DNA from: a virus
Taxonomy: Duplodnaviria > Heunggongvirae > Uroviricota > Caudoviricetes
Direction: 5' to 3' (one strand)
Virus record (IMG/VR): IMGVR_UViG_3300045988_167837
Length of the DNA: 59,942 nucleotides
Made by a program: the position numbers and the translations under genes. The notes beneath the pieces are model-generated. The model had not been told where the DNA came from. It did not search any database and was given only the letters and a program-made list of their open reading frames with translations. Shown piece after piece: positions 109-59,942 of the stretch. Each line of letters opens with the position of its first letter. Position 1 is the stretch's first letter.

Positions 109-264
109 GTAGGCATTACTTCTTTGTAGTGAAAAGGGGCTTGATAGTAACAAAATGGCCTTATGTCTGCCATGTGATAACAGCATTTCTCATAAATGAT
201 TAAATGTCGTAGCTGGAGTACACTACAAGGCGACAATTGCGCAAATTAAAATAAAGGAGACGGG

Positions 265-1365
265 ATGAGCGAGTCCAAATCGCCGGATGCCCTGAGAGCA
301 ATGGTAGCCGGTACGCTGGCTAATTTTCAGCACCCAACCCTGAAACACAACCTGACTACGCTTAAAGCGTTACACCATGTTGCGTTGATGGATGACACAC
401 TGCATGTCGAACTAATCATGCCTTTCGTGTGGAATAAGCCTTTTGAAGACCTGAAAGAGCAATGTAGTGGTGATCTGCTACGTATCACTGGCGCAAAGGC
501 TATTGACTGGAAGCTGTCGTACAACATTGCCACGCTTAAGCGCGTCAAAAACCAACCAGGCATTAATGGCGTTAAGAACATTATCGCCGTCAGCTCAGGC
601 AAGGGCGGCGTGGGTAAATCCTCCACGGCGGTAAACCTGGCACTGGCGTTGGCTGCTGAAGGTGCGAAAGTTGGTATTTTGGATGCCGATATCTATGGTC
701 CATCAATTCCAACCATGCTGGGCGCGGAAAACCAACGTCCAACCTCACCGGACGGTACTCACATGGCACCTATCATGTCTCATGGCCTGGCAACCAACTC
801 TATTGGTTATCTGGTCACCGACGACAATGCAATGGTGTGGCGTGGACCGATGGCCAGCAAGGCGCTGATGCAGATGTTGCAGGAAACACTGTGGCCTGAT
901 CTGGACTATCTCGTTCTCGATATGCCACCGGGCACTGGTGATATTCAATTGACGCTGGCGCAGAACATTCCTGTAACTGGTGCGGTTGTGGTAACTACGC
1001 CGCAAGACATCGCGCTGATCGATGCGAAGAAAGGCATTGTGATGTTCGAAAAAGTCGAAGTGCCGGTACTGGGTATCGTTGAAAACATGAGTGTGCATAT
1101 TTGCAGTAACTGCGGTCATCACGAGCCAATTTTTGGCACCGGTGGCGCACAGAAACTGGCCGAGAAATACAACACGCAGTTGTTAGGCCAAATGCCACTT
1201 CATATCTCTCTTCGTGAAGATCTGGATAACGGAACACCAACCGTTATTAGTCGTCCAGATAGTGAATTTACGGCTATTTATCGTGACCTCGCAGATCGCG
1301 TTGCTGCCCAAATGTATTGGCAAGGTGAAGTAATACCTGGCGAAATCGCATTCCGCGCAGTGTGA
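265..1365 (+). CDS. apbC: Fe-S cluster carrier ATPase ApbC/Mrp
   Basis: 366-aa ORF, near-identical over its length to remembered E. coli Mrp ([24 protein letters not shown]-loop, CxxC motif ICSNCGHH); SD-like AAGGAG upstream of ATG. Confidence 0.95.
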
Positions 1366-1374
1366 TAAAAAGGT

Positions 1375-1500
1375 GGTGCTTTTGCCGTTACGCACCACCC
1401 CGTCAGTAGCTGAACAGGAGGGACAGCTGATAGAAACAGAAGCCACTGGAGCACCTCAAAAACACCATCATACACTAAATCAGTAAGTTGGCAGCATCAC
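1375..1500 (-). mobile_element. insA: IS1 remnant: left terminal inverted repeat plus first 24 codons of insA (truncated)
   Basis: rc of 1462-1500 is GGTGATGCTGCCAACTTACTGATTTAGTGTATGATGGTG (IS1 terminus); ORF 1183..1446 begins [24 protein letters not shown] (InsA N-terminus) and then runs into antisense apbC sequence, so the IS is truncated about 126 bp in. Confidence 0.65.
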
Positions 1501-1611
1501 CGAGCGCCAGCGGCGAACATATGAGCTTCGGAAATACTAGACATTCTTAACTCCGTTGTTTTCTAGTTGTGGTTATTTTCACAAATAAGAAAAGATAGAA
1601 AACAATTTATT

Positions 1612-1640
1612 TAAGGCCACAACTTATGGCCTTTATTTAT
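1612..1640. terminator. hairpin (AAGGCCA...TGGCCTT) followed by T-rich tract
   Basis: Perfect 7-bp GC-rich inverted repeat with 7-nt loop followed by TATTTATT; no adjacent plus-strand gene to assign it to. Confidence 0.3.
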
Positions 1641-1663
1641 TCATGCCGAAGGATTTGTAGCGT

Positions 1664-2044
1664 CTAATTGCCGGATAAAATGGGGTGAGGTGCTTGCCAG
1701 TAGGCTCCACCGTTCCATGTGAACCCCATGCGAATAAGAGTGTTTATTGCGGCTTTGGTAGACTCCGATTCGACACTGGCTTTACGAAACTCTTGAACCT
1801 CTTTCGCCAACTTGTATGTAATTGTGCAGGGGACGATTGCAGCCCAGCCTTTCTCATGACTGTTAATGACCATCTGGATGTGACCATCCAGAATAGGTTG
1901 ATTAGGCATGTTATTGAAAATGTCTGCCTGTTTTTGAATGTGAAGAAAAAGCCTTGCCAGCGCCATTTGCTCACTACGAGACAAGGGATTATCAAGAGGG
2001 CTTTTTGCAAAAGCTGCTATACGCTGTGCATCAATGCCAAACAT
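1664..2044 (-). CDS. hypothetical protein (126 aa)
   Basis: ORF with start abutting the stop of the upstream ORF 2044..2748 (operon-like arrangement). Confidence 0.4.
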   Translation of the reverse strand: MFGIDAQRIAAFAKSPLDNPLSRSEQMALARLFLHIQKQADIFNNMPNQPILDGHIQMVINSHEKGWAAIVPCTITYKLAKEVQEFRKASVESESTKAAINTLIRMGFTWNGGAYWQAPHPILSGN

Positions 2045-2748
2045 CAGCGCACCTCACCATCTTTATGGCTGGAGTTAACTTCCGTCATTAAATGTCTGAC
2101 GTAATCGACAAGAGAGCCGCCTGGTGGAATCTGGCATTCCTCAACTAACTGGAAGTAGATATCCGCTGCATTACGTGTATTGCTACCCGCGCATATTCTT
2201 TCTTCCCGAAGTGCATGAAGCTCGTTGATCAAACGGTCACACTCTCCGTTACGCTGATCCACAACGGCCTCAAGCTCTGCGACGCGTTCACCTGGCGTCT
2301 TACCTTCTTTGCGTTGGATGGTAACGACGAAATCGCCAATTGCAGGGACGTTGTAATCCAGCTCAAGGTAGTTTTTGGCACCGCTGCGGACGAACTCACC
2401 CGCGAACATGGTGGCGAACATCGCAGAGGCCACTTCTCCGTTGAAAAGTGACTCCAGATCTAACGGAGTCCCGGCAGCAAGAGCCTCTTTTGCTGTATCC
2501 ATTGCATCCATGAACCGATCAAACTCACTAGCGCGCTTTTCCAGGTCTTTCCATTGCTCGCTCCAACGTTTGGCAACGAAGTCTATGAATGTTTTCGCGG
2601 ATTCATCAAAATTCCCCTCAAACTTAACGATGCCTTTATCAATAATGATCTGGCCTACCGCATCCTCTGCATAACCTTTCAATGTAAACTTGAAAGGAAA
2701 ATCGGAATGGCCTGTGACGTTAAAATGCTCTAACTGGAGGTTGCTCAT
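2044..2748 (-). CDS. hypothetical protein (234 aa)
   Basis: Long ORF, no recognisable motif. Confidence 0.5.
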   Translation of the reverse strand: MSNLQLEHFNVTGHSDFPFKFTLKGYAEDAVGQIIIDKGIVKFEGNFDESAKTFIDFVAKRWSEQWKDLEKRASEFDRFMDAMDTAKEALAAGTPLDLESLFNGEVASAMFATMFAGEFVRSGAKNYLELDYNVPAIGDFVVTIQRKEGKTPGERVAELEAVVDQRNGECDRLINELHALREERICAGSNTRNAADIYFQLVEECQIPPGGSLVDYVRHLMTEVNSSHKDGEVR

Positions 2749-2809
2749 GTGTTTTTCTCTTATCGTTTAGTAACTACATTCTTACATAAATTAAGTAAGC
2801 ATTTACCTA

Positions 2810-4495
2810 TCATTTAACGCGTTTGAAAACGTATACGCTGACTGTGATCCCTGTGTCTTCAAACTCGTTGGTAAACGACTTCCCTCTGGCATAAACGTAA
2901 TTATCCATCGTCATCCAGTCCAGTATTGGCGCAGTGCCCGGCAATACTGCTACAAGACGCCCGCCGACTTTCAGATGCCCCAGCGCAGCCAGCGTGTGCT
3001 CTCTATGACGACCAAGCGAGTACGGCGGGTTCATAACGATTTTGTCGAACTGATAACCTGCGTTGTCCTCAGACCACTTTATGAAGTCGCAGCAAATCGT
3101 GTTCGTATACCCTTTTCCACGCAGGATATCAGCGAAGAGAGGTGCGATTTCTATGCAGGTAACATCTTCCAGATCGGCGTCAATATAGGCCAGAAGATCC
3201 CCACGTCCGGCTTGAGGCTCCAACAGCTTCTCACCAGGCTTCAATTCAGTGGCTCTTGCAACGTACTCAGCAATCAAGCGTGGGGTAGGGTAGAACTGGT
3301 GTGATTTTGTATCCGGTATTAAACCGGTAGCCACAATCGTATTTAGCGTATGGCCGATGTCATACGGGAACTGCCAGTGCTTTTTCTCCTGCACGCCGCC
3401 AATGAAGCTCAGTGTGCGCTCAAGCTCTTCCACCTGCGACTTCTGGAGAGCTGAATCAGAGAAGTACCATACACCTTTGTCTTTGCTCAATCGCCCGTCA
3501 CGAAGCGCAGTGCGAACCGGCACGGAGATCGTCTTCTGGATTAAACCGAACTGCTTTGGTGCCCGTGTTTTTGGCGCAGTTCGGCATGGCGCGGGGATTG
3601 CAGCAGGCATACTGTAAGCCAGCACCTCATTCAACTTCCAGGCCACGTCAGGATGTATTTCAAAGTGAACGTTGCCGTTCTTGAACATCTTCACGCGCAT
3701 CAGATTTCCATCGACGTTCATCCAGTCACCGGTCTGGCAGTCGTTTGCCCGATACGCAGCTGATAGCACCTCAGCAGTGCGGTTGATGGTAATAAATTCT
3801 TTGTGCGCGAAGAAATGAAGCAAGACACGCAGATCGTCGATGTAGTCCTCTTTGCGATAGTTCACGCTAACGCTGTCCCGCCAGAAATCAGAAATGCAGT
3901 CAGCGATTATCAGCCGCTCGCTGAAACCATTTGTCTTATTTGTCTTGTGCACAGGACTCAGCGCCTTAAACAAGCCATACACGCGCTCAGAGAGATATTT
4001 GTGCCTGTCATTCAGCAAATTAAGCATCGTGGGTATGACCGTTTCTGCTTTGAACTCCGGTACACCAACGAACTCTTTAACCTTCATCTGGTAGCCGGTT
4101 CTGTCAGTTTTGATGACTTCCTGTTTGCCCTCTATAAACTGCTCGCGCCACTCATCTCGACGGGAAGCTGGCATGATCAGCAAAACGTTAGTCATGTCCG
4201 TGACCTTCCTCCAGTACTCGGCCCAAATATTCTGTTTCACCCATTCCAGATCGACTTTATCCAACCAACCTCGATTTAAACGCGAGCGATCTTCATCTGG
4301 TCGATGGTTTAGTTTCAGCAGGCGATTAATCATGTTGTGGCGTTCGTCGCCATAAACGAAGTTGTGAACCTGATACATGAAGGCGATCTCTTTCTCGCAC
4401 TCGGCCACAATTTCGTGGATAACGTTCATTTCCTGACGATAATCGATAGCAGTGTTTGAGCTGGCATCGTCGATGATGGAAAGGGCTGTATTCAT
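2810..4495 (-). CDS. putative DNA methyltransferase with large N-terminal domain of unknown function (561 aa)
   Basis: C-terminal region has SAM-MTase-like motifs (LEPQAGRGDLL then IVMNPPY motif IV, typical of N6-adenine/N4-cytosine MTases); N-terminal about 380 aa without recognisable motifs. Confidence 0.6.
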   Translation of the reverse strand: MNTALSIIDDASSNTAIDYRQEMNVIHEIVAECEKEIAFMYQVHNFVYGDERHNMINRLLKLNHRPDEDRSRLNRGWLDKVDLEWVKQNIWAEYWRKVTDMTNVLLIMPASRRDEWREQFIEGKQEVIKTDRTGYQMKVKEFVGVPEFKAETVIPTMLNLLNDRHKYLSERVYGLFKALSPVHKTNKTNGFSERLIIADCISDFWRDSVSVNYRKEDYIDDLRVLLHFFAHKEFITINRTAEVLSAAYRANDCQTGDWMNVDGNLMRVKMFKNGNVHFEIHPDVAWKLNEVLAYSMPAAIPAPCRTAPKTRAPKQFGLIQKTISVPVRTALRDGRLSKDKGVWYFSDSALQKSQVEELERTLSFIGGVQEKKHWQFPYDIGHTLNTIVATGLIPDTKSHQFYPTPRLIAEYVARATELKPGEKLLEPQAGRGDLLAYIDADLEDVTCIEIAPLFADILRGKGYTNTICCDFIKWSEDNAGYQFDKIVMNPPYSLGRHREHTLAALGHLKVGGRLVAVLPGTAPILDWMTMDNYVYARGKSFTNEFEDTGITVSVYVFKRVK

Positions 4496-51971: not shown

Positions 51972-52221
51972 ATGACAATCACCGAGTTACGCCGATGCAC
52001 TGTATAAGTAAACAGTATATTAGGCATAGATTCTTATAGGATCAAGAGTAAAAGTAACTCATTTTCAGTAATGATTCCATACATAGTAGGTATGGAATCA
52101 TTGTAGGCCTTTTTTATAAAATCTGTGATTCTTCTCAGGATAAATTATCTAAACTAAAAATTGTGTTTTGTGTTGGCATCTGCTTGAATAGACGCATGTT
52201 TATTCAGATATGGAATAATCA

Positions 52222-52758
52222 GTGAACAACCAAATTCATTGGGACTACCCATTCTCAGAAGAATTCGGCAGTGGGATGGTACACAGACAATTCACTGTGG
52301 GAAGCACTATTTATGCCGTTGGGTTTGAACAAATATTGACGATGGATGATTTCACACGTAAGGGAGTTGATATCCTAAATGTACATCCAACATTCCGGTT
52401 TCCTCTGAGTGGTGTATGGGGAGTGATTTTTGACGAAATTGACCCTGTAGAAATGGATTTCAAAGGATTTCGGCATATCCAACATCAAGGCTTGGCAGGT
52501 GGTCAAGTGCTTTTGAATGTTGCAAGTATAATCTTTGACCATTATACTGTTTGTAACGCAGGAGCTTATGTCTTCTCCGCCGCAGACGACCATCAGCATT
52601 TACGCAGAACTGACTTGGTAGACATTTACTGTAAGATACTAGGTCTAAATGGAAAACGTAAAAGTAGATTGTTCGCCAATGGTTTTCCTGGATGGGAGGC
52701 ATACTGTGATGTACCAACAGGAGGAAGAGGCTATGTCGTCACGACTGAAAGTTATTAA
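52222..52758 (+). CDS. hypothetical protein (178 aa)
   Basis: Plus-strand ORF amid minus-strand genes. Confidence 0.45.
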   Translation: MNNQIHWDYPFSEEFGSGMVHRQFTVGSTIYAVGFEQILTMDDFTRKGVDILNVHPTFRFPLSGVWGVIFDEIDPVEMDFKGFRHIQHQGLAGGQVLLNVASIIFDHYTVCNAGAYVFSAADDHQHLRRTDLVDIYCKILGLNGKRKSRLFANGFPGWEAYCDVPTGGRGYVVTTESY

Positions 52759-52960
52759 TTATTACCCCACCTCTGCAGAACGTTTGAGCCTTGAAATGGG
52801 CGAAAGACTACAGAAAGCTGCTGGTCAGGATTTAAAGAACAAGTTGGGTTCAGGGGAAATTAAACTGATTAACGGTAAATATGTAGGTGAAAGCCTGAAA
52901 GTTAATAGCACCTCTATGCTAAAAGCGCGGTTGCGTAAAGCGTATATCTCCGCTAAATGA
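52733..52960 (+). CDS. hypothetical small basic protein (75 aa)
   Basis: ATG at 52733 preceded by AGGAGGAAGAGG RBS; overlaps upstream ORF end; followed by bidirectional terminator. Confidence 0.4.
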   Translation: MSSRLKVINYYPTSAERLSLEMGERLQKAAGQDLKNKLGSGEIKLINGKYVGESLKVNSTSMLKARLRKAYISAK

Positions 52961-52992
52961 AAAGGCCTATATGGGCCTTTTCATTTTTATAG
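52961..52992. terminator. bidirectional rho-independent terminator
   Basis: AAAGGCC-TATATG-GGCCTTT hairpin with T-runs on both sides, between convergent genes. Confidence 0.6.
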
Positions 52993-53232
52993 TGTACTCA
53001 CCAGCGCCGCAAATTCCGTATACCCCCCAATATGCTCTCCATGTATGAATATCTGAGGTATGGTATCCACTGGTTTACCAACCTGGTTGCTCAACGTTTC
53101 TTTGTTGATCCCCGCAGATGTAATATCTATATACTCATAATCACCGTAGCCATGTCCCTTTAGTTGCTTCGCCAACTCGACCGCACGTTTGCAGTATGAG
53201 CAGTTATCTCGTCCGTAGATAGTGATCGTCAT
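52987..53232 (-). CDS. glutaredoxin (NrdH/Grx-like)
   Basis: 81 aa; MTITIYGRDNCSYCKRA with CxxC active site and GG motif. Confidence 0.75.
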   Translation of the reverse strand: MTITIYGRDNCSYCKRAVELAKQLKGHGYGDYEYIDITSAGINKETLSNQVGKPVDTIPQIFIHGEHIGGYTEFAALVSTL

Positions 53233-53405
53233 AACTTAACAAATACCTTTATAAATATTGATTCGAACATATCAGACTATACTACAAACAGATTTTTTTG
53301 ATAAGTATGTAGTAACTTATTGATTGACTAGTAAACAATTGAAGTGATTACGACAATAGATTACAGTAAGGATTGCCTTGAAATGTACATTTTATAGAGG
53401 TTTTA

Positions 53406-54314
53406 ATGATTGGTAAGTTGTCTGATTCTTTGATTGAAAATAAATACAACGAATTTAGAGAAGAAATATCTTTACTTTTTGACTATTTAAATCAGATAAA
53501 TGATACAACAAAGAAAAATATAAAACGTCTTCTTAAAGAAGTGGAGTATGCACAAAATCCAGATACTATTATTAATATTAATGAAACTATTAAGATTAAG
53601 TGTGGCACAACGTTAGCTCGCCATTTATGTTCAAACCCATATACAGGTTCAACATTAGAGATAGGTAACAGCGCCATTGATTTAGAAGAAAAGATAAGAT
53701 TGTGTAATACTTTGAAAAATAAACAATATCAGTGGGTTATTACTGAAGCCTATGAGTTACTGGAAGACTATATTGAGGCAATATATGTCTATACTGTATG
53801 TGTTCGAAATGATTTATGGTCCTCAAGTGATTTTGGTAAGGTTGAAGATGATGAAATTGGGAAAAGGGAAGTTTATTACAGATTATTAAAAGCAAAAAGT
53901 AACCCATCGAAAAAAATAACTAAAATTTTCAGAAATAAAATACCTGGCTTCAAAGAGATAGAAACAAACAACAAGATTGGCAAAAACTATCGCTTTAACA
54001 TCAAGCTAATTGAACTACTAAGACATACAATAGTACACAATAGTGGACGATTCAATGATACAGAAAAATTTATAAATAAGGTTTTAGATGAATCTGAAAT
54101 AAACGGTAAGAAAAGAGTTATTGGAGAAAGAGCTGTTAGAAGTTACATTACTAAAGTGCAAGAAGATGATATTGTGATGCTCTTAGAAAGACCATCTGAA
54201 ATTTTAGGTTCTTTTGGTGGGTATTTTAACAGAGCAAAATTTTTACTAAGTGATATTTTAGAATACTCACTAATCATTAAAGAAGAACTAAAATCATATC
54301 TAGGCAATCATTAA
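53406..54314 (+). CDS. hypothetical protein with Rx4H (HEPN-like) motif; candidate abortive-infection/defense protein (302 aa)
   Basis: Markedly AT-rich ORF, own AT-rich upstream region, bidirectional terminators on both sides; motif LLRHTIVHNSGR fits the HEPN Rx4-6H signature. Confidence 0.6.
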   Translation: MIGKLSDSLIENKYNEFREEISLLFDYLNQINDTTKKNIKRLLKEVEYAQNPDTIININETIKIKCGTTLARHLCSNPYTGSTLEIGNSAIDLEEKIRLCNTLKNKQYQWVITEAYELLEDYIEAIYVYTVCVRNDLWSSSDFGKVEDDEIGKREVYYRLLKAKSNPSKKITKIFRNKIPGFKEIETNNKIGKNYRFNIKLIELLRHTIVHNSGRFNDTEKFINKVLDESEINGKKRVIGERAVRSYITKVQEDDIVMLLERPSEILGSFGGYFNRAKFLLSDILEYSLIIKEELKSYLGNH

Positions 54315-54315
54315 C

Positions 54316-54346
54316 AAAAAAGGGGCCGAAGCCCCTTTGGATTTTG
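54316..54346 (+). terminator. rho-independent terminator after HEPN-like gene
   Basis: AAAAAGGGGC-CGAA-GCCCCTTT hairpin followed by TGGATTTTG. Confidence 0.6.
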
Positions 54347-54492
54347 CGCTTAAAAAAGTGTTGCTAGGATGTTAGCAAGCTATGGTTAAGAACGTCTGCC
54401 GTAATTGTCTATCACAGCGTTGAGCGGTCTGGTTTATGTTAGCGGAGTCTTAATCGAGTTGATTAAAAGGCCAAACCGCTCAACGCTGTGTC

Positions 54493-54579
54493 TGGCGGAG
54501 AGTAATGGAATCGAACCATCATCGCTTGCGCAATGGGACGGTTTTCAAGACCGCTTGAGCACCATGCTCCCTACTCTCC
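54493..54579 (-). tRNA. tRNA-Ser (anticodon TGA), class II with long variable arm
   Basis: rc folds as acceptor GGAGAGT/ACTCTCC, anticodon stem GCGGT/ACCGT with loop CTTGAAA, 14-nt variable arm, T-loop TTCGATT, encoded CCA. Confidence 0.6.
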
Positions 54580-54679
54580 AGCTATTGTGATGGTCGGTGC
54601 TGAACTCCGACACAGGGTTGTAGCAAGCCCCGCAAAGCGCGCACTACTGTAGTTGCGGCACATCAGCCTGTGCATTCAT

Positions 54680-54758
54680 CACAACGGTAAGATCACTACC
54701 TTTCGACCAGTCATTGTGCACATGAACGACGATTAACCGTAATGATCTTATCGTTGTG
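54680..54758. ncRNA. long hairpin element A (15-bp stem CACAACGGTAAGATC / GATCTTATCGTTGTG, about 49-nt interior) within tRNA cluster
   Basis: Perfect 15-bp inverted repeat with one G-T wobble position. Confidence 0.35.
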
Positions 54759-54809
54759 TTGTGAAGCCAGATGCTTATCTTCTGGTTGCTTCAAAGAGCT
54801 GCACTTCCT

Positions 54810-54898
54810 CACAACGGTAAGAGCACTGGTCTGACTCTATCGATTTACGGCCTTGTGGGTCAGTATCGCCGATTCGCCCAATGCTCTTACCTGTTGTG
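54810..54898. ncRNA. long hairpin element B (16/17-bp stem CACAACGGTAAGAGCA / TGCTCTTACCTGTTGTG) abutting tRNA-Thr
   Basis: Stem sequence shares CACAACGGTAAGA with element A. Confidence 0.35.
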
Positions 54899-54899
54899 T

Positions 54900-54975
54900 T
54901 GGTGCCGGTTAACGGACTTGAACCGCTGGCCATTCGCTTACAAAGCGACTGCTCTACCAACTGAGCTAAACCGGC
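54900..54975 (-). tRNA. tRNA-Thr (anticodon TGT)
   Basis: rc: acceptor GCCGGTT/AACCGGC, D-arm GCTC-AGTTGGTA-GAGC, anticodon loop TTTGTAA, T-loop TTCAAGT, encoded CCA; 76 nt. Confidence 0.65.
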
Positions 54976-54979
54976 AATT

Positions 54980-55066
54980 TGGTGGGGAGTGATGGAGTCG
55001 AACCACCCGAGTCGCCATGACAGTAGATTTACAGTCTACACCGCTACCTCTACGGACTAACTCCCC
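54980..55066 (-). tRNA. tRNA-Tyr (anticodon GTA), class II with long variable arm
   Basis: rc: acceptor GGGGAGT/ACTCCCC, anticodon stem GTAGA/TCTAC with loop CTGTAAA, long variable arm, T-loop TTCGACT, encoded CCA; 87 nt. Confidence 0.7.
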
Positions 55067-55071
55067 TAAAT

Positions 55072-55146
55072 TGGCGATGGTGGGTGGATTCGAACCACCG
55101 ACCAGTTGGTTAACAGCCAACTGCTCTACCGCTGAGCTACACCATC
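55072..55146 (-). tRNA. tRNA-Asn (anticodon GTT)
   Basis: rc: acceptor GATGGTG/CACCATC, D-arm GCTC-AGCGGTA-GAGC, anticodon stem GTTGG/CCAAC with loop CTGTTAA, T-arm GGTGG-TTCGAAT-CCACC, encoded CCA; 75 nt. Confidence 0.75.
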
Positions 55147-55327
55147 AATTCAGCACTGCCAGTATTTATTACTCAACAGTGCCAATCGCGACGGTTTAGT
55201 TTCTGCCAGGAAACGCACCGCTACTTGCACTTTTCGTTAGTGCCAGACGCTTTCGACTTCGCTCAATAGTAGAAGGCAAAATCTTTAAGTAGATGATGTT
55301 TCTGAGGACAGCACCTACTTTGTAATT

Positions 55328-55365
55328 GGGGAGCCCGCAGAATTCGGAAAAAATCGTACGCTAAG
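55328..55365. repeat. 38-bp terminal inverted repeat of Tn21-family (Tn3 superfamily) transposon, tnpA-proximal end
   Basis: GGGGAGCCCGCAGAATTCGGAAAAAATCGTACGCTAAG, matching the GGGG...ACGCTAAG pattern of Tn21/Tn501-group IRs; tnpA stop codon lies inside it; GC content rises sharply from here. Confidence 0.8.
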
Positions 55366-58327
55366 GTTTTCCGGGCATCCGTAAGGGCCGAAACTTCCCG
55401 TCTTCCAGTCTGCGGCTCTGCCGCCAGACGTAATCGCCGGTTAGGTTGATGTGCTCCCAGCCCAGCGGCGACAGGAATTGCAGCAGCTCGCCGTCCACCG
55501 GCTTGCCGGCCTCGACCAACCCCTGGGTGGCGCGTTCCAGGTACACCGTGTTCCACAGCACGATAGCCGCCGTCACCAGGTTGAGGCCGCTGGCCCGGTA
55601 GCGCTGCTGCTCGAAGCTCCGATCCCTGATTTCCCCAAGGCGGTTGAAGAACACCGCCCTGGCCAGCGAGTTGCGCGCCTCACCTTTGTTCAGGCCGGCA
55701 TGCACGCGGCGGCGCAGTTCAACACTTTGCAGCCAGTCCAGGATGAACAGCGTGCGCTCGATCCGGCCCAGCTCGCGCAGGGCCACGGCCAGTCCGTTCT
55801 GGCGCGGGTAGCTGCCGAGCTTGCGCAGCATCAGCGAGGCGGTGACGGTGCCCTGCTTGATCGAGCTGGCCAGGCGCAGGATGTCGTCCCAGTGGGCACG
55901 CACGTGCTTGATGTTCAGGGTGCCGCCGATCAGCGGGCGCAACGTCGGGTAGGCTTGCACGCCCTGCGGCACGTACAGCTTGGTTTCGCCGAGGTCGCGG
56001 ATGCGCGGCGCGAAGCGGAAGCCTAGCAGGTGCATCAGGGCAAAGACGTGATCGGTGAAGCCGGCCGTGTCGGTGTAGTGCTCCTCGATCCGCAGGTCGG
56101 ACTCGTGGTACAGCAGGCCGTCGAGCACATAGGTGGAATCGCGGACGCCGACATTCACCACGCGGGTGCTGAACGGCGCGTACTGGTCGGAGATATGGGT
56201 ATAGAACAGCCGTCCCGGCTCGCTACCGTACTTCGGGTTGACGTGCCCGGTGCTCTCGCCCCGGCCACCCGCGCGGAAGCGCTGGCCATCGGAGGATGAG
56301 GTCGTGCCGTCGCCCCAGTGGGCGGCAAAGGCGTGGCGATACTGGTGGTTGACCAGCTCGGCCAAGGCCGCCGAATAGGTTTCGTCGCGGATGTGCCAGG
56401 CTTGCAGCCAGGACAGCTTGGCGTAGGTCAGGCCGGGGCTCGACTCGGCCATCTTGGTCAGCCCGAGGTTGATCGCATCACCGAGGATTGCGGACAGCAG
56501 CAACGTCCTGTCTTTGGCCTCGGCCCCGTCCTTCAAGTGGGTGAAGTGGCGGCTGAAGCCCGTCCAGTCGTCCACGTCCATCAGCAGTTCGGTGATCTTG
56601 ATGCGCGGCAGTAACTGGCTGGTTTGGTCGATCAGCGCCTGCGCCCGATCCGGCACCGCCGCATCCAGCGGGGTGATTTTCAGCCCTGACTCGGTGAGGA
56701 TGGCATCGGGCAGCTCGTTGTCCTTGGCCAGGCGGGTGACGGTGGCCAACTGCTCGTCCAGCAGCTGCAAACGCTCTTCCAGGTACTGGTCGCTGTTCGG
56801 GTTGATCGCCAGGGGCAGGGCCTGCTCGCGCTTGAGTGCGGCGAACTTCTCGGCCGGCAGCAGGTAGTCGTCGAAGTCGCGGAACTGCCGCGAGCCCTTG
56901 ACCCAGATGTCGCCGGAGCGCAGGGCGTTCTTCAGCTCGGACAGGGCGCAGATTTCGTAGAATTTCCGGTCGAGGCCTTCCGGGGTGATCACCAGCGGCT
57001 TCCAGCGCGGCTTGATGAAGGCCGTGGGTGCATCGGCCGGCACCTTGCGCAGGTTGTCGGCGTTCATCTCACGCAGGGTCTGCACGGCTGCCAGCACGCC
57101 TTGCGCGGCCGGCGCGGCGCGCAGTTCCAGCACCTCCAGCAAGGCCGGCGTGTAACGGCGCAGGGTGGCGAAGTTCTCGCCGACCAGGTGCAGGTGGTCG
57201 AAGCCTTCCGGCCGGGCCAGCAGCTCGGCCTCGCTGACGCTCTCGGTGAACTCGTCCCAGGGAATCACCGCCTCGATGGCGGCATAGGGGTCGCTGCCGC
57301 TTTCCTTCGCTTCCAGCAGCGCCTGGCCGATCCTGGAGTACAGGCGCACCTTGTCGTTGATCGCCTTGCCCTGCTTCTGGAACTGCTGCTGATGCTTGTG
57401 CTTCGCGCCGCTGAACAGCTTGACCAGGATGCGGTCATGCAGATCGACCAGCTCATCGATCACGGTCGCGGTGCTCTCCAGCACCACGGCGGCCAGGGTC
57501 GCGTAGCGGCGCTGCGGCTCGAACTTACCGAGGTCTTTGGGCGTCATCTGCCCACCCTCGCGGGCCAGCTTGAGCAGGCGGTTCTGGTGGATGTGCCGGC
57601 CCAGGCCTTCGGGCAAGTCCACCAACTGAAATGTCTTCAGCCGCTCGATGTGTTCCAGCATGTGCCGAGAGTTGGGTTTCAGCGGTGCCTGGCGCAGCCA
57701 GGTCAACCAGGTGATGCTGCTGCCGGCCTTGAGCTTCAACAGCTCGTCCAGCTTGGCCCGATGCGAGTCCGTGAGTGGTTCGACCAGGGCGCGGTAGACC
57801 CGCCGATTGGCTCGCGCAATGGCTTCCGAGCAGGCCCGGTCAATCACGCTCAGCGCCGGCAGGATGCGTCGTTTCTGCCGTAGGCTCTCCAGGGCCTGAC
57901 CGGCCAGCAGCAAGCCTTTGTCGGTCTGCTGGGCCAGCTCGGTTAGCTCGCGCACCAGGGCGCGGAAGTCGGACAGGCCGAACGGGGCCAGTTGCAGGTA
58001 GGTGCGCAGTTCCTGGGCATGCTCGCGACGGGTCACGTCGCGCTCGCCGTACTTTGCCCAGCTCGCCGGCTCGGCCTGGACTTGCTTCGCCACCCACAGG
58101 ATGACCGGCTCGGGCAGCTCGCTGTCGGTTCCCAGCGCGTAACCGGGGTAGCGCAGCAGGCAGAGCTGCACGGCGAAGCCGAGGCGGTTGGCGTCGCCGC
58201 GTCGCTGGCGGATCAGCGACAGGTCGGAGTCGTTGAAGGTGTAGTAGCGGATCAGGTCATCCTGGCTTTCCGGCAGCGCAAGCAGGGTGTCCCGCTCCGT
58301 GGCCGAGAGGATCAAGCGACGCGGCAT
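55361..58327 (-). CDS. tnpA: Tn3-family (Tn21 subgroup) transposase
   Basis: 988-aa ORF with recalled Tn21-group TnpA blocks (MPRR.ILSA.ER..LLALP N-terminus, DDE region [32 protein letters not shown]-terminal [20 protein letters not shown]). Confidence 0.9.
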
Positions 58328-58330
58328 GTG

Positions 58331-58891
58331 TCAGTCGTCCGTGCGGAGGTACTGGTAGAGGGTTTCCCGGCTGATGTTGAACTCGCGGGCAAGCTGCGCC
58401 TTGGGCTCGCCGGCCGTCGCTCGCTGCCGCAGGGTAGCAGCCTGCTCATCGGACAGGGCTTTCTTGCGGCCCCGGTACGCGCCACGCTGCTTGGCCAAGG
58501 CGATGCCCTCACGCTGCCGCTCGCGGATCAGGGCGCGCTCGAACTCAGCGAAGGCCCCCATCACCGACAGCATCAGGTTGGCCATCGGCGAGTCCTCGCC
58601 AGTGAACACCAGGCCCTCCTTCAGGAACTCGATGCGCACGCCGCGCTGAGTCAGCTTCTGTACCAAGCGACGCAGGTCATCGAGGTTGCGGGCCAGCCGA
58701 TCCATGCTGTGCACCACCACTGTATCGCCTTCGCGGACGAAGCTCAGCAGCGCTTCGAGCTGGGGGCGCTGGGTGTCCTTGCCCGATGCCTTGTCGGTGA
58801 ACACCTTGCTCACCTGGGTTTGTTCCAGCTGGCGTTCCGGGTTCTGGTCAAAGCTGCTGACCCGGACGTAGCCGATGCGGTGCCCCTGCAC
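58331..58891 (-). CDS. tnpR: serine recombinase resolvase
   Basis: 186 aa; catalytic Ser region GYVRVSSFDQNPERQ, C-terminal HTH; sequence as I recall it for Tn21 TnpR. Confidence 0.9.
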   Translation of the reverse strand: MQGHRIGYVRVSSFDQNPERQLEQTQVSKVFTDKASGKDTQRPQLEALLSFVREGDTVVVHSMDRLARNLDDLRRLVQKLTQRGVRIEFLKEGLVFTGEDSPMANLMLSVMGAFAEFERALIRERQREGIALAKQRGAYRGRKKALSDEQAATLRQRATAGEPKAQLAREFNISRETLYQYLRTDD

Positions 58892-59066
58892 GATGTCTCC
58901 TTGGTTGAAGGCGGCTTAAGTGCACTTTCTGTTCCGTTGTGCCTCAAAGCCCATTTCTGTCAGGCTGAAATCTATAACCTTCGCGGGCATGTGTCAAAAA
59001 ATGGGAAAGCAGACTCTATTCTGACGAAGCGGCGCGGCCCTGCCTGACATCAAGTTAGGGTATGCC
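58892..59066. other. res (resolution) site region between tnpR and tnpM
   Basis: Position by analogy with Tn21 organisation; subsites not individually delineated. Confidence 0.45.
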
Positions 59067-59417
59067 TCAACCTGACGGCGGCGAATCACAAGCGTCCGGT
59101 TTGACGCTGGTTTCGGTCGCAGTGCTGGCCCGCGCCTGGAAGCGCTGATAGCACTCCAGCCCGCAGAAATGCTCCACGTACTCGGCCCCTTCCGGCGTGA
59201 AGGCGGCATCGAGCGGGATTTCCTTGCAGCACACGCAGCAACTGGTGCTCGGTTCATTGGCGTTCATGGTGGTGTTCCTCCATTGGTTGACGAAGCCGAC
59301 GAAGGCCGCCGCCGGCATCGGCCTGGCGAACAGGAAACCCTGCACCGTGTCGCAACCCGCCTGCCGCAACCACGCAAGGCAGTCGGGTGTTTCCACACCC
59401 TCGGCTACCACCTCCAT
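59067..59417 (-). CDS. tnpM: TnpM (5' remnant of the EAL-domain urf2 gene interrupted by integron insertion)
   Basis: 116-aa reading frame starting [33 protein letters not shown] (EAL C-terminal motif); the 204-aa track ORF 59067..59681 reads through IRi and is chimeric. Confidence 0.7.
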
Positions 59418-59442
59418 TGTCGTTTTCAGAAGACGGCTGCAC
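59418..59442. repeat. IRi, 25-bp inverted repeat at the intI1 end of a class 1 integron
   Basis: TGTCGTTTTCAGAAGACGGCTGCAC, the class 1 integron IRi sequence as I recall it. Confidence 0.8.
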
Positions 59443-59619
59443 TGAACGTCAGAAGCCGACTGCACTATAGCAGCGGAGGGGTTGGATCCATCAGGCAACG
59501 ACGGGCTGCTGCCGGCCATCAGCGGACGCAGGGAGGACTTTCCGCAACCGGCCGTTCGATGCGGCACCGATGGCCTTCGCGCAGGGGTAGTGAATCCGCC
59601 AGGATTGACTTGCGCTGCC

Positions 59620-59942
59620 CTACCTCTCACTAGTGAGGGGCGGCAGCGCATCAAGCGGTGAGCGCACTCCGGCACCGCCAACTTTCAGCACATGCGTGTA
59701 AATCATCGTCGTAGAGACGTCGGAATGGCCGAGCAGATCCTGCACGGTTCGAATGTCGTAACCGCTGCGGAGCAAGGCCGTCGCGAACGAGTGGCGGAGG
59801 GTGTGCGGTGTGGCGGGCTTCGTGATGCCTGCTTGTTCTACGGCACGTTTGAAGGCGCGCTGAAAGGTCTGGTCATACATGTGATGGCGACGCACGACAC
59901 CGCTCCGTGGATCGGTCGAATGCGTGTGCTGCGCAAAAACCC
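59620..59942 (-). CDS. intI1: class 1 integron integrase, 3' portion (gene continues beyond window end)
   Basis: Translation ends ...[61 protein letters not shown], the IntI1 C-terminus; frame open to window edge. Confidence 0.9.

Follow-up and report, generated by a model that had tools for sequence, protein, structure and literature searches.

Among the single-protein abortive-infection (Abi) systems with a HEPN domain, AbiD, AbiD1 and AbiF (family Abi_2, PF07751) are proteins of roughly 300-350 residues that are encoded by AT-rich genes on plasmids or prophages, need no partner and have a helical domain with the motif R[N/H]xxxH. Here we analyse an open reading frame (ORF) in the virus record IMGVR_UViG_3300045988_167837, the whole stretch of which (59,942 nt, coordinates counted from its first letter) is referred to as the window and is, judged by its sequence, an SSU5/pECOH89-type phage-plasmid. 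An earlier note on this DNA had read the ORF as a horizontally acquired candidate abortive-infection effector with a HEPN-like motif; its observations are partly confirmed and its interpretation is partly supported by the analysis. The reading that we consider most likely, and to which we give about an even chance, is that the ORF encodes a stand-alone, metal-independent HEPN-type endoribonuclease serving as a single-gene anti-phage (abortive-infection-like) effector; its HEPN homology, RNase activity, dimerisation, trigger and role in defence are what we infer. The gene and two segments of it are the following.

53406-54314, + strand: the ORF, 302 residues (WP_001755525.1, phrog_35492)
53682-53804, + strand: conserved helix, residues 93-133, with N105, Q107, W110 and the invariant E117 (codon 53754-53756)
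54021-54038, + strand: codons of the Rx4H motif R206-H207-T-I-V-H211, part of RHTIVHN (residues 206-212, nt 54021-54041)

RefSeq calls the identical frame on plasmid pM160133_p3 as a 'hypothetical protein', and the only PHROGs entry to which it belongs has no function assigned. A word-indexed protein search returned 8 relatives; an exhaustive profile search gave 450 cluster representatives (50% identity) at E<=1e-3, 139 of them with E<=1e-30, and nearly all are 285-310 residues long. The family, with at least 450 such clusters in Proteobacteria, Desulfobacterota, Bacteroidota, Spirochaetota and Nitrospirota, is widespread, consists of stand-alone proteins of about 290-310 residues and is unannotated in the databases. 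In an alignment of 138 sequences with a mean column identity of 24%, exactly three columns are invariant, namely E117, R206 and H211. Conservation of at least 90% is further seen for N105, Q107, W110, Y127, W138, E186, N189, H207 (96%, the rest being asparagine), V210 (99%) and G214 (98%), and E120, in the same helix as E117, is 90% conserved. Conservation peaks in helix 93-133 and in residues 195-218, while the first 92 and the last 40 residues vary, and R[H/N]xxxH is found in all full-length members. The earlier note had seen in one sequence that RHTIVHN fits the Rx4-6H signature of HEPN RNases. Taken singly the motif is uninformative, because 48% of shuffles of the ORF protein contain an Rx4-6H and its occurrence is therefore not above chance; it becomes meaningful because it is invariant across the family. 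Lack of conservation in homologs, which the note had named as grounds for abandoning its proposal, was looked for in the 138 diverse relatives, and the motif turned out to be conserved in them.

The HEPN domain has been defined as a four-helix up-down core with an insert between helices 2 and 3, in which the Rx4-6H motif ends helix 3 and runs into the loop to helix 4, the motif arginine is followed by a polar residue (N, D or H), and an upstream helix usually provides an acidic residue, typically as Ex3[K/R] (PMC3710099). An AlphaFold model of the ORF protein computed with a deep alignment (predicted local distance difference test, pLDDT, 94.2; predicted template modelling score, pTM, 0.90) begins with a long helix (residues 2-50) and a beta-hairpin (69-91), which would together make up the variable N-terminal part. 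The conserved core would then comprise the long helix 93-133 with the invariant E117, an inserted region of short helices (134-194) and helix 195-212, at whose C-terminal end R206-H207-x3-H211 is located; a loop with G214, helices 219-229 and 235-245, a small hairpin and helix 276-300 complete the model. The residue after the arginine is H or N in all 138 relatives, as the HEPN definition asks, and helix 93-133 is a candidate for the helix that provides the acidic residue in HEPN domains. In sequence and predicted secondary structure the protein appears to match the definition of PMC3710099, the four-helix fold and the acidic residue being the more tentative points. The recurrent Pfam links of the family are weak, and those that seem to carry any meaning lead to HEPN families only, DUF3644 being matched by three members (best E 0.0065) and HEPN_Apea by one. 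We consider it likely that the ORF protein works like a HEPN RNase, and its formal membership in the HEPN superfamily is plausible.

The gene is found in 57 enterobacterial plasmids of about 110 kb, compared with 515 that carry the backbone integrase, i.e. in about 11% of such plasmids, and in 27 of 5,426 complete E. coli genomes, every time on a plasmid. Its surroundings in the window are made up of the following features.

52955-52986, both strands: hairpin 3' of the grxA stop codon (-21.8 and -18.3 kcal/mol; z -6.4 and -4.3)
52987-53232, - strand: grxA-type glutaredoxin gene (Pfam Glutaredoxin, E 3.8e-11), at the left border of the cassette
53233-53405, + strand: AT-rich 5' region of the cassette, a divergent intergenic region common to grxA and the ORF
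54319-54338: GC-rich hairpin directly after the ORF stop codon (-13.2 kcal/mol on the + strand, -15.4 on the - strand)
54493-55146, - strand: tRNA cluster Ser-UGA, Thr-UGU, Tyr-GUA, Asn-GUU, four backbone genes, three of them confirmed by Rfam
55321-59942: Tn21-family element with a TnAs1-type tnpA (55361-58327), the resolvase gene tnpR and the class 1 integron integrase gene intI1

Similarity to phage Cyrano, which lacks the ORF, ends at 53232 and returns at 54315, and these breaks mark the two borders of a 1,082-bp cassette (53233-54314, GC 0.287). The ORF itself has a GC content of 0.292, compared with 0.46 in the backbone (1-53232), 0.49 in the tRNA segment and 0.64 in the Tn21-family element. 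The lower GC content described in the earlier note is thus borne out, as is the AT-rich upstream region (GC 0.285 in the 200 nt 5' of the ATG). Divergent from grxA and convergent with the tRNA genes, the ORF is a separate transcription unit; a Shine-Dalgarno sequence, GAGG, lies at 53397-53400, 5 nt from the ATG, and a scan of the + strand of 53233-53405 revealed no consensus sigma-70 promoter. Of the strong bidirectional terminators claimed for both sides, both hairpins exist and the one at 52955-52986 is strong (none of 200 shuffles is equally stable), but it sits beyond grxA, so that the insulated unit is the divergent pair of grxA and the ORF. The hairpin at 54319-54338 is scored as a terminator for the - strand (the tRNA side) only, and it belongs to the backbone rather than to the cassette, since Cyrano has the same hairpin unchanged without having the ORF; it may also end the ORF transcript.

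The alleles that occupy this one syntenic slot are 100%, 56-59%, 43% and 38% identical to the ORF product, have GC contents of 29-32% and are flanked by backbone that is about 98-99% identical. Between grxA and the terminator lies either the present ORF or, in Cyrano, a Gp49-family gene, and the segment from the integrase to the tRNA genes is a mosaic among relatives. The low GC content, the accessory distribution and the divergent alleles speak for mobility, and the view of the earlier note that this is a stand-alone module spread by horizontal transfer is supported, the gene being an accessory cassette. The hotspot that the note had described is present as far as the four tRNA genes and the Tn21-family element are concerned, but closeness to tRNA genes is a trait of the backbone and not of the protein family.

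One genome per species was sampled, giving 29 loci from highly diverse bacteria (Lonsdalea, Undibacterium, Variovorax, Collimonas, Sulfurimonas, Desulfobacterales, Bacteroidales, Treponema, Leptospirales, Nitrospira and Neisseria), with the gene delimitable in 27. In all 27 its GC content is below that of the locus (e.g. 0.32 versus 0.61). A conserved partner or antitoxin gene was considered and rejected, as the neighbours in these 27 loci vary in size, strand and family; housekeeping genes, genes of mobile elements and defence genes all occur among them. The following genes adjoin family members.

L008: OLD/AriA/GajA-like ATPase
L010: Avs4 C-terminus and SIR2-like protein
L013: HNH/type IV restriction enzyme
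L017: AbiQ/ToxN
L021 (Campylobacterales metagenome-assembled genome), 164-3420: type IIG restriction-modification gene overlapping the family gene by 4 nt, with a PD-T4-7-like gene on the other side
L024: integrase beside tRNA-Arg
L029: PDC-S32

Pooled neighbour matches also include PD-T7-5, PD-T7-1, PD-Lambda-2, PDC-S13/S15, AbiEi and a type I S subunit, and integrase, tRNA, P2 tail genes and SmpB are likewise found near family members. These neighbourhoods fit the pattern expected for a stand-alone defence gene. In the Campylobacterales locus the family member overlaps the stop codon of the restriction-modification gene, an arrangement that may represent an operonic link to the restriction system. 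A homolog with 28% identity on a Pseudomonas veronii plasmid (L006, 4723-6717, cargo of an integrative and conjugative element) is the third of three close same-strand hypothetical genes with gaps of 49 and 14 nt, an arrangement not seen in the other loci. Circumstantial support for the 38% allele comes from Klebsiella plasmid p2 of strain Kp1604 (CP085480, OK644452), which encodes it: curing p2 raised the plating of three lytic phages 10-100-fold, and transformation went up as well (PMC8969562). SSU5-type elements are known to carry both defence and anti-defence cargo, and the 2025 DefenseFinder survey of SSU5-type phage-plasmids that reported this does not name the gene among its systems (bioRxiv 10.1101/2025.09.12.675607).

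If the protein is a HEPN RNase, analogy with characterised members suggests that it would dimerise, the two Rx4H motifs building one active site, and that it would be inactive in uninfected cells. Infection by a competing phage or other mobile element would lead to cleavage of RNA (tRNA, mRNA or rRNA), which would halt translation and block the spread of the invader. A bolder and less likely version is that the protein is an anticodon nuclease and that the tRNA genes next to it on the plasmid cushion the harm done to the carrier.

A number of results weigh against the reading as a HEPN-type defence RNase. No model in Pfam, NCBIfam or PADLOC matches the ORF protein, so that the profile comparison with Abi_2/HEPN families proposed in the earlier note came out negative; the best Pfam hit, DUF3644 at residues 182-223, reaches 7.9 bits against a cut-off of 27.6 (E 2.9), and Abi_2 and the PADLOC models for AbiD/AbiF give no match for the query at E<=10 and are not among the top families of the 138 members. 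Sequence and profile searches of the PDB yielded no HEPN match, and weak PDB matches to CmlS and SNAP-25 were judged to be noise. The structure prediction that the note had also proposed did give a confident model with the motif at a helix end, but Foldseek returned nothing at E<=1e-3 in PDB or BFVD. Comparisons by hhalign with RnlA and EC042_2821 (single sequences) and with a 43-sequence DUF3644 alignment, the latter also core versus core, all stayed at a probability of <=1% and are not significant; the Rx4H motifs were in register in the runs with RnlA, EC042_2821 and the DUF3644 core, and not in the full-length DUF3644 run. Furthermore, the Ex3[K/R] context is not present around E117, and the HEPN fit was read from the secondary-structure string of the model. 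On the side of the biological role, the defence-island association is qualitative, from a small non-randomised sample with no background control, and the authors of the Kp1604 study ascribed the effect of p2 to a restriction system, the causal gene being unmapped (PMC8969562). The uniformly negative profile and Foldseek tests are also what would be expected if the protein had a different helical fold, with E, R and H used for other chemistry (DNA or nucleotide cleavage, ligand binding), or if it were a non-enzymatic regulator; five members weakly match NDC10_II, a recombinase-like domain (best E 0.0017). A recombinase would however need a conserved C-terminal tyrosine or a second arginine, neither of which is seen in the family, and three invariant polar residues with R[H/N]xxxH closing a helix make up the very signature of HEPN. 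We hold a non-HEPN protein to be unlikely.

Two further explanations accept an RNase and assign it another purpose, and we regard both as rather improbable. The protein could help to stabilise the phage-plasmid as toxin in a module of the addiction or toxin-antitoxin kind, with maintenance as its primary role and with a small RNA, a tiny ORF or a cis-acting mRNA structure as antitoxin. HEPN RNases such as RnlA and HepT are often toxins, and relatives have a YafO toxin module in the adjoining variable slot; yet no adjacent gene is conserved in the 27 loci, neither tandem repeats nor an Rfam element were found flanking the ORF, and the chromosomal relatives reside in defence-type neighbourhoods, not on plasmids. 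An imperfect inverted repeat of about 55 nt (53367-53423 versus 54260-54313) pairs the 5' untranslated region and start codon with the last 18 codons and the stop codon; the duplex reaches -38.8 kcal/mol, where 73 internal windows give -19.1 +/- 3.7, and such pairing could, in principle, shut off translation. The 56%, 43% and 38% alleles lack this complementarity, and an mRNA fold-back as a conserved regulator of the family was therefore rejected as specific to the present allele. The protein could instead be an RNase that serves the phage-plasmid in lytic growth or against host immunity, by host shut-off, RNA processing or counter-defence, possibly in connection with the tRNA genes. The gene does sit on a temperate phage-plasmid next to a phage tRNA cluster, is a member of a PHROG and is found in a type of element that bears anti-defence as well as defence cargo. 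Against this, the gene turns up in only 2 of 50,697 phage records, a structural relative is missing from BFVD, and most family members are housed in bacterial chromosomes. A functional link to the tRNA cluster as a trait of the family was rejected, as the surrounding 8 kb contain tRNA genes at only 2 of 28 other loci and the cluster is kept in relatives without the gene.

Several further features of the region were recorded. Positions 52000-55300 of the window are 100% identical to the E. coli plasmid pM160133_p3, and a site-specific integrase, a helix-turn-helix regulator, a CobT-like protein, a DNA ligase and a primase are encoded around the ORF, a gene set by which the SSU5/pECOH89 type was recognised. 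The Tn21-family element, 100% identical copies of which are present on many conjugative plasmids, starts at about 55321, some 175 bp past tRNA-Asn, and its insertion together with intI1 makes the window an integron-bearing phage-plasmid. In the tRNA cluster, tRNA-Ser(UGA) (54493-54579) is called by ARAGORN and, unlike the other three, is not reported by Rfam at the gathering score; a 20-bp stem (54413-54490, 95% complementary, 38-nt loop) adjoins it. The 9-mer TAAKGATTG, considered as an operator, has 4 copies in the window where 1.27 would be expected, a number attained in 3 of 100 shuffles. A palindrome (52068-52104) with a 15-bp stem, GTAATGATTCCATAC...GTATGGAATCATTGT, marks the edge of the conserved integrase segment and is kept in the five integrase-spanning relatives compared; similarity breaks there, and a role as terminator or as recombination boundary is conceivable. 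Between this palindrome and the grxA terminator a second variable slot (52116-52986) is found, which in the window holds two overlapping + strand ORFs, 52222-52758 (178 residues) and 52733-52960 (75 residues), neither with a Pfam or PADLOC match. In relatives the same slot carries YafO toxin and a 202-residue ORF (L002) or a 184-residue ORF (Cyrano, pSLy3), or is empty (pECOH89), and it may be another site for toxin-antitoxin or defence cargo. On the SSU5-type Citrobacter plasmid pRHBSTW-00127_3 (L037, 3483-7891) the 43% allele is followed by the arsenic-resistance operon arsRDAB, so the region downstream of the ORF slot takes differing cargo across hosts.

Returning to the reading of the ORF product as a HEPN-type defence RNase, a wider and more tentative proposal, which we place somewhat below even chances, is that it is the founding example of an unrecognised, widespread family of single-gene HEPN-like RNase immunity proteins. 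These would have a sensor architecture of their own (the variable N-terminal helix and beta-hairpin), would go undetected by current defence finders, and would be swapped by SSU5-type phage-plasmids of clinical Enterobacteriaceae, carriers of drug resistance included, as diversified alleles of a fixed slot that exclude competing phages. If this were true, a new family invisible to Pfam, NCBIfam and PADLOC would join the stand-alone HEPN RNase defence effectors, a 'hypothetical protein' on drug-resistance-bearing phage-plasmids of E. coli and Klebsiella would gain a function, and the unexplained anti-phage effect of the Klebsiella SSU5-like plasmid would have a candidate gene. A fixed slot whose alleles range from 38 to 100% identity within a backbone of about 98-99% identity is also a natural system in which to follow the exchange of immunity cargo between phage-plasmids, and since the gene is small and solitary the proposal is directly testable.

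Described HEPN systems compare with the ORF protein as follows. HepT proteins (5YEP SO_3166, 7AE2; also 1JOG, 2HSB, 1WWP) are domains of about 120-140 residues paired with a nucleotidyltransferase (MNT) antitoxin, whereas the putative core of the ORF protein lies within 302 residues, with large extensions and no MNT neighbour. PrrC and RloC are HEPN RNases that abort infection by cutting tRNA, and PrrC has been reported on SSU5-type phage-plasmids (bioRxiv 10.1101/2025.09.12.675607); they differ by an N-terminal ABC-type ATPase and by their linkage to restriction systems, neither of which is seen for the ORF. RnlA and LsoA (RNase LS), toxins of E. coli prophages and plasmids, are mobile anti-phage HEPN RNases with the motif form RHxxxH, and the top hhalign segment pairs their motif with that of the ORF protein, albeit at a probability of 0.17%; they are accompanied by an adjacent antitoxin gene (rnlB), while the ORF has no conserved partner. 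DUF3644, whose prototype is EC042_2821, is the sole Pfam family matched by the query, at the motif region, where hhalign pairs RHxIVH with RDQAVH. In HEC-08, a defence protein of this HEPN family whose HEPN domain resembles 5YEP, mutation of the motif histidine abolishes defence; the ORF protein scores far below the family cut-off and is without the winged helix-turn-helix, restriction endonuclease and Zn-ribbon parts described for it. From the Abi_2 proteins the ORF product differs in giving no Pfam Abi_2 or PADLOC Abi match even at E<=10 and in its long N-terminal helix and beta-hairpin, which have no established counterpart there, but it resembles them in being a stand-alone, partnerless helical protein with R[N/H]xxxH, encoded by an AT-rich gene.

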